A program made the position numbers and the translations under genes. From contig JBBQZX010000008.1 of assembly GCA_038207335.1 (NCBI GenBank), positions 1-64,000 of the forward strand: a DNA stretch of 64,000 nt, given 5' to 3'. The number at the start of each line of letters is the position of its first letter. The first letter of the stretch is position 1. The stretch comes from Chthoniobacterales bacterium. GTDB taxonomy: Bacteria; Verrucomicrobiota; Verrucomicrobiia; Chthoniobacterales; Chthoniobacteraceae. The notes beneath the pieces were generated by a model, which was given only the letters and a program-made list of their open reading frames with translations, searched no databases and had not been told where the DNA came from. Below are positions 15,220 to 18,200 of the stretch, piece after piece.

Positions 15220-18200
15220 TTAATTTCCGGAGTACCCATAGGTGTTGAAGTAGAGTTTTATGTCCGTGACATTGTTGATAAAGGTGTCGAGCGCCTTGTC
15301 GCCGTCGCTGAGCATCGTCCCGCCGGGGATGATGAGCAGCCAGTTCGTGTTCCAGACCGAGCGGCCGGAGAGTCGGGTGTCTGTGGCGAAATTTGGCGTC
15401 CCAGCGGTAATCCCGGCACGGAAACTCGAGAAGCGGCGGATTTCTGCCAGCGGGCCGGTGAGGCCGTCGGTCACGGGAATCCAGTCGGGGTTGCTCAGGT
15501 TGCTATTGCCCACCGGAAACGGCACGGGCAGCGCCTGATCGAGCACGGTCCAAGTGCGCGTTTTTAGCGAGAGGCTGTTCGGCACCGTGAGAACATCGAG
15601 CCCCGCCGGCACCAGATAGGCCTGCGGGGTTGCCGCAAGCGCGGCAACCGGATATCCCTCGAACAATAGGCCCGCCGAGGCGATCTTGTTGGCAAAGTTG
15701 GTGGGGTTGAATGCCACGTCCCCTGCCGCCAGCGCTTTGCCGAAGAAATTCCGGCCAAACACCGTCTGCGTGTTGAACGGGATCACTAGGCCCGGCAGCT
15801 TGCCGGCGCTGCGGGCGACCGGCGGGCGGCAGAAGCGGCGGAACTCCGGCACGGTCCAAAGATCGTCCTTGCGGCTGTTCTGCAGCAGTTGCTTCCAGCC
15901 TGCCGCGTTCGTCCGTGCCTGCTCGCGCTTCATGGAAAATCCGCTCGTCTCGATCTGCGGGTTATTCAATCCGAGGCGACCTTTGAGCACGGAGTAGTTC
16001 GCCTTCAAAGTCGCGAGCACTCCCGACAGTCCGCCGCCAGCGTTGGTCGGGCCGTTTTGATACACGCCGAGCGTCCGGGATCGGACGATGTCCTGAAGCA
16101 ACGGTTGCGCGGATGCGGGATCACTCGGATCGAGGTTCGTCTCGTAGTCGTAGGCCTTGGCCGCAAGATAGACATAGCGCGCCGCGAGGTCGAAAGAGGC
16201 GCGGTATTTCTGCAACGCATCGTTGCGGAAGACTCGGAACGCCACATCTTGATAACGCGTCTGCTGTGTGGCACCCGCAGCGTTGCGGTTGAAATCCGCG
16301 CGCTCATCGACCAGCGCGAGACCCTTTTGCAGCACGGTGCGGTAGCGGTCCGAGATTTGCCGCGTCAGTTCCAGGCGGCGGAACACTTCGACACGCTGCG
16401 CCGCTTCGTTCCAAAGCATCAACTCGAGATCCTTCAATTCCCCCTGGATATCCGCCGCGAAGCCCGCCTTCTCAATTTCCAGCGAAGCCTGCGTCGCAAG
16501 GTCATCCCTCCCGATCTCGAGCGCGCTGATCACTGCATCGCTGCCGATCTTCAGCGAGGTAAAGGCGCTCGCGGTTGACGCCCCCGCCAGCAACGCGGAC
16601 CCGCGCGCAGTGGACGTAAAATCGTTGTCGAGACCGTTGATGACCGGGAAAAACTCCGAAATCGCCAAAGCCGTGTCGAAGGTGTGGGTGCTGGTCTGGG
16701 TGTCGAAGACGGCTCCCACGACTTGCAGGCCCGCGATTACCGAGTTCAACGCCAAGGTCACCTTTCGCACGTTGTCATTCACCTGCACTGTTTGCGACGC
16801 CAGCCCATGCTTGGCTCGCAGTTGTTCCGCCGCAGCCTGGATTTCCAGAATGAGGTAGTCGTAATCGCCCACGGAAAAGCCGAGGCTCGCCTCCGCTTGG
16901 ACGAGTTCCGAGATCACCGATTGCAGCTCGCCCGGCGCGCTGCGCCGACCCCATTCCGGCGGGGCCTGGAAGGTGTAGGCGGAGGCGGTCACGGGTAGAT
17001 TCAAATTTAAGCTGAGCGCGTGGAAGTAACTATCGACCGAAGTGATGGCCGAGTAGCCCTTGGCCATTTGGGTTGGATCGAAGAAGGGCGACACCAGCTT
17101 GTTGTCGAGTGTCGTGGCGACCGGGCTGATGACATCCGCGAGGAAGTATTGACTGAAGACGTTCGCGAACTGTGGAGAAGTCGTGACCGTGCTGGCGCCC
17201 ACTGTGAGGCTCTTCGGATCGACGGTCACCATCTGTGGAAACGCGCTCCAGACGTCGTTAAAGAAACCGTTCGGCCCCGGCACGGTGTCACTGTTGACGT
17301 CGTTTACATCGACATACATGTAGAGCGCCAAGTCCGGCCCAGAGTAACCGGTCGGATAGATTTTCCCGGCTCCAATCTGCCCGGAGTACGGTGTGCCGAA
17401 AACCTCGATCAACCGATTGCGGTAATCGCGATCCTGCTCGAACGTTTGGCGCATGAACGTCGCCGCTGTGCTCGCCTGCTGCCGGATGCGGTTGGTTTGC
17501 AGACTCGCGTTGTCGAAGACCTTCACAGCATTCGCCAGCGCGGTGTCGGCACGGGCCGCGATCTGCTCGAAGTGGCTCTGCGACAAGGCTCCGGGCGTGA
17601 TGAGCGTCGGGTCGAAATCCATCGGGACCACGTCCGCGGCCAGTCCCAGCGGATTCAGGCCCGTGTTTGCGTCATCCTCGGTGCCTTGGATTTTTCCGAG
17701 CTGCGCCGAGATGTTGTGGATGGCTGTGACGGTCGTGCGATCGACTTGCTGGATGCCCGTGTGCGTCGTGTCGGAGGCGGGAATCAGCGCATTCGCCGTA
17801 ATCCAGTCGAAGTAAGCACCCTGCCCGGCGCGCCGTGCCCACTCGTCCACGCCCCATGCGCGGTCGGGATCGGTGTCCGCGTAGCCTTGCCACTGGCCGT
17901 CTGGGTTCTCCACGTATCGCGAACGATAGGTGAGATTGACGATCTCCGCGCCGGCCTTGGCGCGCGCGGCGGCAGAATCGGCAAACTTCCGCTCGTCGAG
18001 GAAGTCCACCTTCAAGACGACATCAAGCAAGTTATAGAACTCGGAGCGGGAGACCCAGTTGAAGTAAGGATGCTGGAGCAGCGAGTATTGGCTCTTGATC
18101 GCCGTGAGGTAATGGCCCCACGCATCGCCGTGACCTTGCGGGTAGAAGATCATCGCATCCTTCTCGTCGATGAATCCGTCGCGGTTCTGGTCGGTGATGT

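Follow-up and report, generated by a model that had tools for sequence, protein, structure and literature searches.

The question raised by this locus is whether the C-terminal part of a giant protein encoded in the window (the whole 64,000-nucleotide stretch of DNA that was analysed) is a relative of the membrane-penetrating needle of Tc toxins and, if it is, with which partners such a needle would work. The Tc needles known so far are toxins of pathogens; they depend on a TcB-TcC cocoon and are released from the cell by lysis. Their A subunit, TcA, is a homopentamer with a channel of ten helices. A first-pass annotation had likened the C-terminal part of the giant to the TcA translocation channel and TcB-binding domain, and had proposed an oligomeric needle whose docking partner is not TcB. 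The minus-strand open reading frame (window 15220..26598) encodes an intact protein of 3792 aa, which across the C-terminal region, taken here as residues 2967-3792 (~830 aa), shares 88% identity with a 3794-aa homologue. All eight motifs on which the annotation rested are present where it placed them and in the order that it gave (Table 1).

The C-terminal region has the pattern of a long helical hairpin. Segments 3008-3066, 3222-3311 and 3326-3436 show a hydrophobic period of 3.45-3.5 with ~1% proline or less, and the descending helix is broken by a Pro-rich insertion (residues 3067-3221, 8.9% Pro) that the first reading overlooked; the single 19-residue stretch of the region with hydropathy above 1.4 (1.88) is at residue 3280. 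In an alignment of 79 family sequences the P-x-x-x-G of the tip is present in 76 rows, flanked by low-charge arms rich in Gly, Ala and Ser; because tip pattern and arms are both kept across this alignment, the motif features belong to the family as a whole and are not due to chance. The hydropathy of the tip arms, averaged over the family, peaks at 0.72 compared to 0.84 in TcA. Two features speak against a TcA-type needle, namely a conserved Asp after the tip and a descending arm that carries more charge than its TcA counterpart. With the insertion left out, the arms come to ~148 and 151 residues, where those of TcA have 125 and 124; the predicted hairpin is lengthened symmetrically relative to TcA by ~25 residues per arm, in addition to the 155-aa insertion. 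As far as sequence alone can tell, this pattern fits the long two-helix channel with hydrophobic tip loop that characterizes TcA.

Direct searches with the giant do not retrieve TcA. Pfam, NCBIfam and PHROGs yield no TcA match, a sub-threshold SBBP repeat being all that is found; Pfam at E 0.01 detects no VRP1 (PF03538), neuraminidase-like (PF18413) or PF18276 domain in the protein, and PF18276 has no match in the whole genome at E 1. Searches of the PDB with the sequence and with two profiles return 1, 27 and 29 matches at E up to 10 with no TcA among them, the profile searches being headed by ZorA, spectrin and chaperonins at E 0.03-1. Profile-profile comparison by hhalign gives, however, a different result. 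The TcA reference set comprised PF18276-bearing genes with intact frames from published genomes only, verified as genuine by matches to YenA2, XptA and TcdA1 at E 1e-154 to 1e-126. Against 12 TcA C-termini the family is matched with probability 92.3% (E 5.5e-7) and against 23 with 90.2% (E 1.5e-6), over 264-285 columns at 12-15% identity, these E-values being pairwise and borderline at the scale of a library with tens of thousands of families; a comparison of 111 family rows with 19 TcAs gives 82.6%. The match (residues 3291-3646) takes in the tip and the ascending helix, then the DLA..A..YE helix and the initial strands of the TcB-binding domain. Its score of 65 exceeds that of all controls, which reach 33-34 for reversed profiles, at most 48.5 (the next being 37.4) for 30 block shuffles, and 27 and 22 for two real decoy families (21 MCPs and 16 SMCs, respectively). 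Random halves of the family score 74 and 60 against TcA; 15 classical TcAs score 71, and 8 TcAs with a C-terminal extension only 35. Scored singly, the hairpin reaches a moderate 45, whereas neither the beta domain (20) nor the stretch formed by the first 260 residues (16) reaches significance. An HMM built from TcAs only gives more than 5 bits for 19 of 79 family sequences and for 1 of 75 reversed ones.

The ESM Atlas provides evidence that is independent of profile alignments. For the whole region it returns a value of 0.93, with 13 of 30 matches in PF18276 clusters; for the last 236 residues, in a search covering named clusters only, the value is 0.95 (206 of 256 features) with 19 of 30 matches in the PF18276 set, PF18276 being found on 31% of that cluster. 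Both recognition values are low (1819 and 1558, scores being reliable from 2300), and the Atlas results thus serve as supporting leads. We consider it probable, at roughly 80%, that the C-terminal 830 residues are distantly homologous to the channel and funnel of the Tc-toxin A subunit. The annotated likeness to the channel and TcB-binding domain is partly borne out, by the profile comparison with genuine TcAs, by the Atlas and by TcB-TcC-like genes in the operon of one homologue (see below), each line being weak by itself, although not by Pfam TcA_TcB_BD or PDB searches nor by the beta domain taken alone; that such a homologue would form an oligomeric needle is what we infer from the likeness. 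A convergent origin, in which a long helical hairpin with a small-residue tip had been joined to an unrelated beta domain, appears improbable. It would account for the ranking of ZorA, spectrin and chaperonins ahead of any TcA when the PDB is searched by HMM, for the one block shuffle at 48.5 and for the fact that nothing before residue 2958 matches TcA, and it gains from there being only two real decoy families (MCP and SMC); but the match extends through non-helical motifs into the beta domain, the additional weak block at 2958-3022 is colinear, the beta domain by itself retrieves PF18276 clusters, and TcB-TcC-like genes lie within one operon.

The giant shares with TcA (TcdA1, XptA1/XptA2, YenA2, TcaB; PF18276) the order of channel top, descending helix, P-x-x-x-G tip, ascending helix, DLA..A..YE helix and terminal beta domain, as well as a length of 2,000-5,000 aa and variable binding-type domains, and one homologue adjoins TcB-TcC-like genes as TcAs do. 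It differs in having no VRP1, neuraminidase-like or PF18276 match and no shell homology. By the definition in the accessible text of PMC7861375, a TcA contains VRP1, neuraminidase-like and TcA_TcB_BD domains in that order, and on that definition the giant is not a TcA, two of the three domains being missing and the third matched remotely. Where TcA has a helical shell, a stretched linker and a trefoil knot (PMC6795518, accessible text), the giant has a conserved upstream core without detectable sequence homology to TcA: four segments covering residues 380-2960 give hhalign probabilities below 1% against two full-length TcA profiles, and no shell, neuraminidase-like or linker homology is found by hhalign upstream of the hairpin. 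A set of 104 distant homologues covers the giant increasingly from residue 1300 on and fully from 2600, apart from gaps at ~2000-2100 and 3100-3200, and residues 2600-3000 are 60-67% identical to distant homologues; the N-terminal parts differ within the family (LamG, Ig, PA14, FG-GAP) and the core from ~1300 is common.

The giant also differs from Tc proteins in its N-terminus. A Tc protein would have no signal peptide and be released by lysis, whereas the giant and 96 of 115 Met-starting homologues have signal-peptide-like starts, compared to 1 of 19 TcAs, as judged by a crude test. YenTc, by contrast, is assembled in the cytoplasm and exits by T10SS lysis (PMC10847048; for the general Tc mechanism PMC10317148, both as far as their accessible text goes).

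Table 1. Window positions of the operon genes and of features of the giant protein.
Feature	Residues	Window position (nt)	Strand	Remarks
Gene A, 371 aa, secreted-type, no known family		29444..30559	-	In 47 of first 80 loci; often B-fused in relatives
LamG-B gene, 945 aa: three LamG lectin-like domains and conserved C-terminal domain B		26601..29438	-	Pfam LamG E 5e-79
Giant gene: signal peptide, variable N-terminal beta domains and repeats, core from ~1300, TcA-like C-terminal 830 aa		15220..26598	-
Predicted Sec signal peptide: hydrophobic stretch, then A-x-A		26500..26598	-	Hydropathy 2.0 at residue 4
Conserved upstream core, candidate shell around needle	1300-2957	17728..22701	-	No detectable TcA homology
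Block colinear with TcA channel top, weak alone	2958-3022	17533..17727	-	Third alternative hhalign match, score 21, E 0.39
HFEQ helix	3008-3024	17577-17527	-
Descending helix, first part	3008-3066	17401..17577	-	Period 3.5, no Pro
Pro-rich insertion, ~155 aa	3067-3221	16936..17400	-	No TcA counterpart found
Descending helix, second part, and apolar arm	3222-3317	16648..16935	-
Hydrophobic arm	3282-3299	16755-16702	-
Tip segment named in first-pass annotation	3313-3326	16662-16621	-
Hairpin tip, P-x-x-x-G then conserved Asp	3318-3326	16621..16647	-	Aligns with TcA tip loop
Ascending helix, Gly/Ala-rich near tip	3327-3465	16204..16620	-
Ala/Gly arm	3335-3346	16596-16561	-
FDLA..AYDYE (FDLA..YDYE) helix, motif best matching TcA	3469-3488	16194-16135	-	hhalign
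GGGL segment	3521-3531		-
C-terminal beta domain, TcB-binding-domain-like	3557-3792	15223..15930	-	ESM Atlas; start inside hhalign match
W.L.IP	3753-3758		-
Last strand	3777-3787		-
Gene C, 976 aa: N-terminal domain C, TSP3-like repeat, cadherin/Big_9 adhesion domains		12309..15239	-	20-nt overlap with stop of giant
PpiC-type peptidyl-prolyl isomerase/chaperone (PPIase), lipoprotein-like start		11395..12312	-	Pfam Rotamase; in 45 of first 80 loci
Ig/MAM surface protein, 1066 aa, last in operon		8198..11398	-	Near relatives only

The giant is the third gene of a six-gene operon (A, LamG-B, giant, C, PPIase, Ig/MAM protein) with intergenic gaps of 5, 2, -20, -4 and -4 nt; a terminator-like site was not found 3' of it. 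Giant loci have conserved partners of their own (A/B, PPIase and, elsewhere, tail fibres) that set them apart from Tc operons. Of the 60 loci where 700 nt or more precede the giant, 58 encode domain B there, and a C-domain gene follows directly, in the position that tcB holds in Tc operons, in 124 of 138 loci (a set that includes the present locus and in which three or more contigs are counted twice). Neither for A nor for B or C is there a match to a known family or structure, PDB profile searches giving nothing below E 0.02. A relationship of C to Vip1/Vip4/C2-II was considered and rejected, as the matches span just a 16-23-residue Ca-binding repeat. Domain B (window 26604-27263, minus strand), which has no known family, contains a near-invariant His-rich motif, NPF.H.YHPDH, suggestive of a metal or cofactor site. 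An F.DGFE motif, which we take to be possibly a C-terminal sorting signal, ends both C proteins and upstream DUF11 proteins at L028, L035, L038, L061, L065 and other loci of Gammaproteobacteria and Acidobacteria. Divergent from the operon (window 30709-35772, plus strand) is the gene for a secreted-type protein of 1687 aa with five lamin-tail domains, a CotH kinase-like domain and a TSP3 repeat, of which only the tail is conserved at other loci; genes for an HlyD-type adaptor and an FtsX-type permease (window 36074-39869, minus strand) lie 5.5 kb upstream of the operon on its strand. At loci L145-L158, L162 and L208 an extra secreted protein of ~3,100-3,500 aa is encoded directly after the PPIase, and a truncated relative of it has Big_9, cadherin and beta-helix domains.

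A further set of partners is seen at other loci. In 18 of 18 upstream regions, picked by hand and mostly from genomes with two giant copies or a TcB match, one to three secreted proteins resembling tail fibres adjoin A/B, and in 17 of the 18 their genes (termed D) lie between B and the giant; among the first 80 loci a fibre gene is seen in just one. When 15 fibre proteins were scanned with Pfam, five gave matches to Collar, Gp10_C or Peptidase_S74; in PHROGs, two of five have strong tail-fibre matches (E 6e-27 to a tail collar fibre and E 1e-21 to a tail fibre). Phage tail fibres are also used by tailocins and by extracellular contractile injection systems. The D proteins end in the same fibre domains (Collar PF07484, Peptidase_S74 PF13884; PHROG 1800, 1980) but differ from phage fibres at the N-terminus, where they have a signal peptide and a domain common to them all, and on casual inspection no sheath, tube or baseplate genes were noticed beside the D genes. 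The present genome has no fibre gene; its B bears three LamG domains instead.

The partner on which a Tc needle would be expected to depend is largely missing. In five genuine Tc genomes a TcB match lies 2-3 kb after the tcA match. A genome-wide search for tcB/tcC in the present genome (94.7% complete) finds neither PF18276 nor an RHS core or repeat, and what matches there are to SpvB and, of FG-GAP type, to TcdB-mid stay below threshold; nothing passes the cut-off except summed FG-GAP-like repeats, and the TcB-HMM match that these produce is discounted. They belong to an open frame of 24,413 codons outside the window (G000 contig C16), with FG-GAP-like repeats at ~7,260-8,350 and an RTX-like Gly-rich C-terminus. 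A Tc toxin locus has been defined as tcC within 10 kb of tcA or tcB (PMC7861908, accessible text), and the present locus is not one by that definition. Across carriers of the giant, 51 of 56 genomes have no TcB match, several of them being 99-100% complete or in a single contig, and TcdB-mid is matched in 5 of 56 carriers versus 12 of 345 non-carriers (odds ratio 2.7, p 0.073, kin not being independent).

Among the first 80 loci one, in genome G1219, has a TcB-HMM match, and tcB and tcC are both represented there. The gene order is C, A/B, tail fibre, giant, a fusion of SpvB, FG-GAP, TcdB-mid (TcdB_toxin_midN) and RHS, C, and a second such fusion; the two fusions (2381 aa, starting 32 nt after the giant, and 2326 aa) are 59% identical. 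Both have signal-peptide-like starts, and before the RHS core a 166-aa insert resembles domain A (probability 62%, score 36 versus at most 21 in 20 shuffles), possibly as a docking or sorting module common within the system. Inserts of 163-166 aa stand before the RHS core in cocoon-like proteins at L077:12379-19524, L203:2178-9158 and L059:4118-5881. The other four giants of G1219 have A/B and a fibre, three of the four have C, and the fetched DNA contains no cocoon gene. At L059 an RHS-core frame of 587 aa and the same type starts 25 nt after a giant that is the sister of G1219's on the tree, so that the two cocoon-linked giants point to one event; the idea that they are nearer to TcA than other giants was rejected, their scores being -5.8 and -17.6 bits. 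In G1177 a fusion ends 3.1 kb before a cluster of A, B and fibre, with a gene that looks by eye like a sensor kinase in between, and the two contigs of this genome share no common end. No true TcB is found in 63 further downstream regions: of three weak TcB-HMM matches after other giants, two are FG-GAP/MBG adhesins (scanned) and the third, at L172, is closely homologous to these two in sequence, and an RHS gene two genes away at L167 was left uncounted. When metagenomes were scanned with the cocoon-linked giant, 3 loci came up, with no cocoon gene in the sequence covered. Locus counts are lower bounds because upstream cover is short at most loci.

These results bear on whether the giant could be a Tc-type injector of the ordinary kind, with a TcB-TcC cocoon that lies elsewhere in the genome, is missing from the assemblies or comes from neighbouring cells, which we regard as improbable. 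The two fusions in the G1219 operon, the third near the G1177 cluster and the excess of TcB-mid among carriers are consistent with it; the excess is, however, not significant and comes from kin that are not independent, most carriers are without a match, several of them with genomes 99-100% complete or in one contig, and none of SpvB, TcdB-mid, RHS repeat and RHS core passes the cut-off in the present genome, the summed FG-GAP-like repeats apart. At G1177, moreover, the sensor-kinase-like gene parts the fusion from A, and the cluster known there consists of A, B and fibre. The annotated view that the partner is not TcB thus fits the present genome and most carriers but not the family as a whole, in which G1219 has fusions in its operon.

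Given export signals, own partner genes and a mostly absent cocoon, target cells would be punctured by a different arrangement, and the giant likely works like a TcA needle in a new, mostly cocoon-free system. In the mechanism that we propose, several giants would form a needle of helical hairpins whose apolar tip enters a target membrane, making a pore that here needs no TcB-TcC cocoon; as a whole this stands at about even odds. Export would be via Sec, as the signal peptides suggest, with the PPIase aiding folding (step 1); the giant would then oligomerise, five-fold by analogy with TcA alone (step 2), and its unrelated-looking upstream core would sheathe the needle (step 3). The target may be chosen by A/B with LamG domains or, at other loci, by tail-fibre proteins (step 4). 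Protein C, which has adhesion repeats and occupies the place of tcB in Tc operons, would for these reasons be placed at the funnel end as a cap or tether (step 5). Harm would come from the open pore or from some further cargo (step 6), for which a TcB-TcC fusion, where present, could serve as carrier; a cargo-free pore is plausible because TcAs form ion-permeable pores without TcB-TcC (PMC6795518, accessible text). A wider reading is more tentative and falls somewhat short of even odds, namely that these proteins are a Sec-exported, cocoon-independent branch of Tc nanosyringes, common among free-living bacteria from six phyla or more, with lectin domains or phage-type tail fibres to direct them, protein C as cap or tether, and TcB-TcC as an optional plug-in.

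The same parts could also have been put to harmless use, a TcA-derived needle serving on the producer's own surface as an adhesion stalk or scaffold, or as an envelope conduit, and bearing lectin, cadherin and fibre domains. Every partner appears to be secreted, adhesion repeats are present in many, a TcB match is lacking in the 51 carriers counted above, no immunity-like gene was noticed, and the hosts are free-living sediment and water bacteria according to record titles. We nevertheless consider such a role unlikely, since the apolar hairpin tip is kept family-wide, the fibre partners differ between loci in up to three versions, cocoon genes occur in one operon, and up to five intact copies per genome together with patchy presence fit conflict systems. 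If the giant is a needle, as we prefer, it shows the work of the TcA channel being done without a cocoon and particle building outside the cytoplasm, and it would point to a common, overlooked weapon or surface machine in Verrucomicrobia, Acidobacteria, Desulfobacterota and marine Gammaproteobacteria.

The family is large yet invisible to Pfam-based surveys of TcA, and its parts list differs. The C-terminal region is the conserved core of ~1,600 cluster representatives (50% identity) at E 0.001 and of 927 at E 1e-30; 673 of 2,120 scored candidates of 2,085-6,636 aa match it, and at least 546 relatives are among 618 pattern matches listed in species genomes. Within the phylum 56 of 401 genomes sampled (14%) have a giant, and its presence is patchy, with 5 of 41 close relatives carrying one. 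Apparently the family is undescribed so far: no description is found in literature searched by listings and abstract starts, supplements, subscription papers and dbTC tables being places that may mention it, and a preprint on giant genes (10.1101/2023.11.21.568195, accessible text) makes no mention of TcA. Record titles place the hosts in Verrucomicrobiota, Lentisphaerota, Kiritimatiellota, Acidobacteriota, Thermodesulfobacteriota and Pseudomonadota, some labels, e.g. Bifidobacterium, looking like misnamed bins. Genomes G1219, G1221 and G1222 (Limisphaerales/Pedosphaera-type) each hold up to five intact giants and several broken copies. The nearest named homologues are from Verrucomicrobiaceae, and the family is directly testable because named isolates carry it, among them Marinicella, Catenovulum, Cerasicoccus, Chiayiivirga and Wenzhouxiangella as well as Prosthecobacter, Coraliomargarita, Persicirhabdus and Desulfonema.
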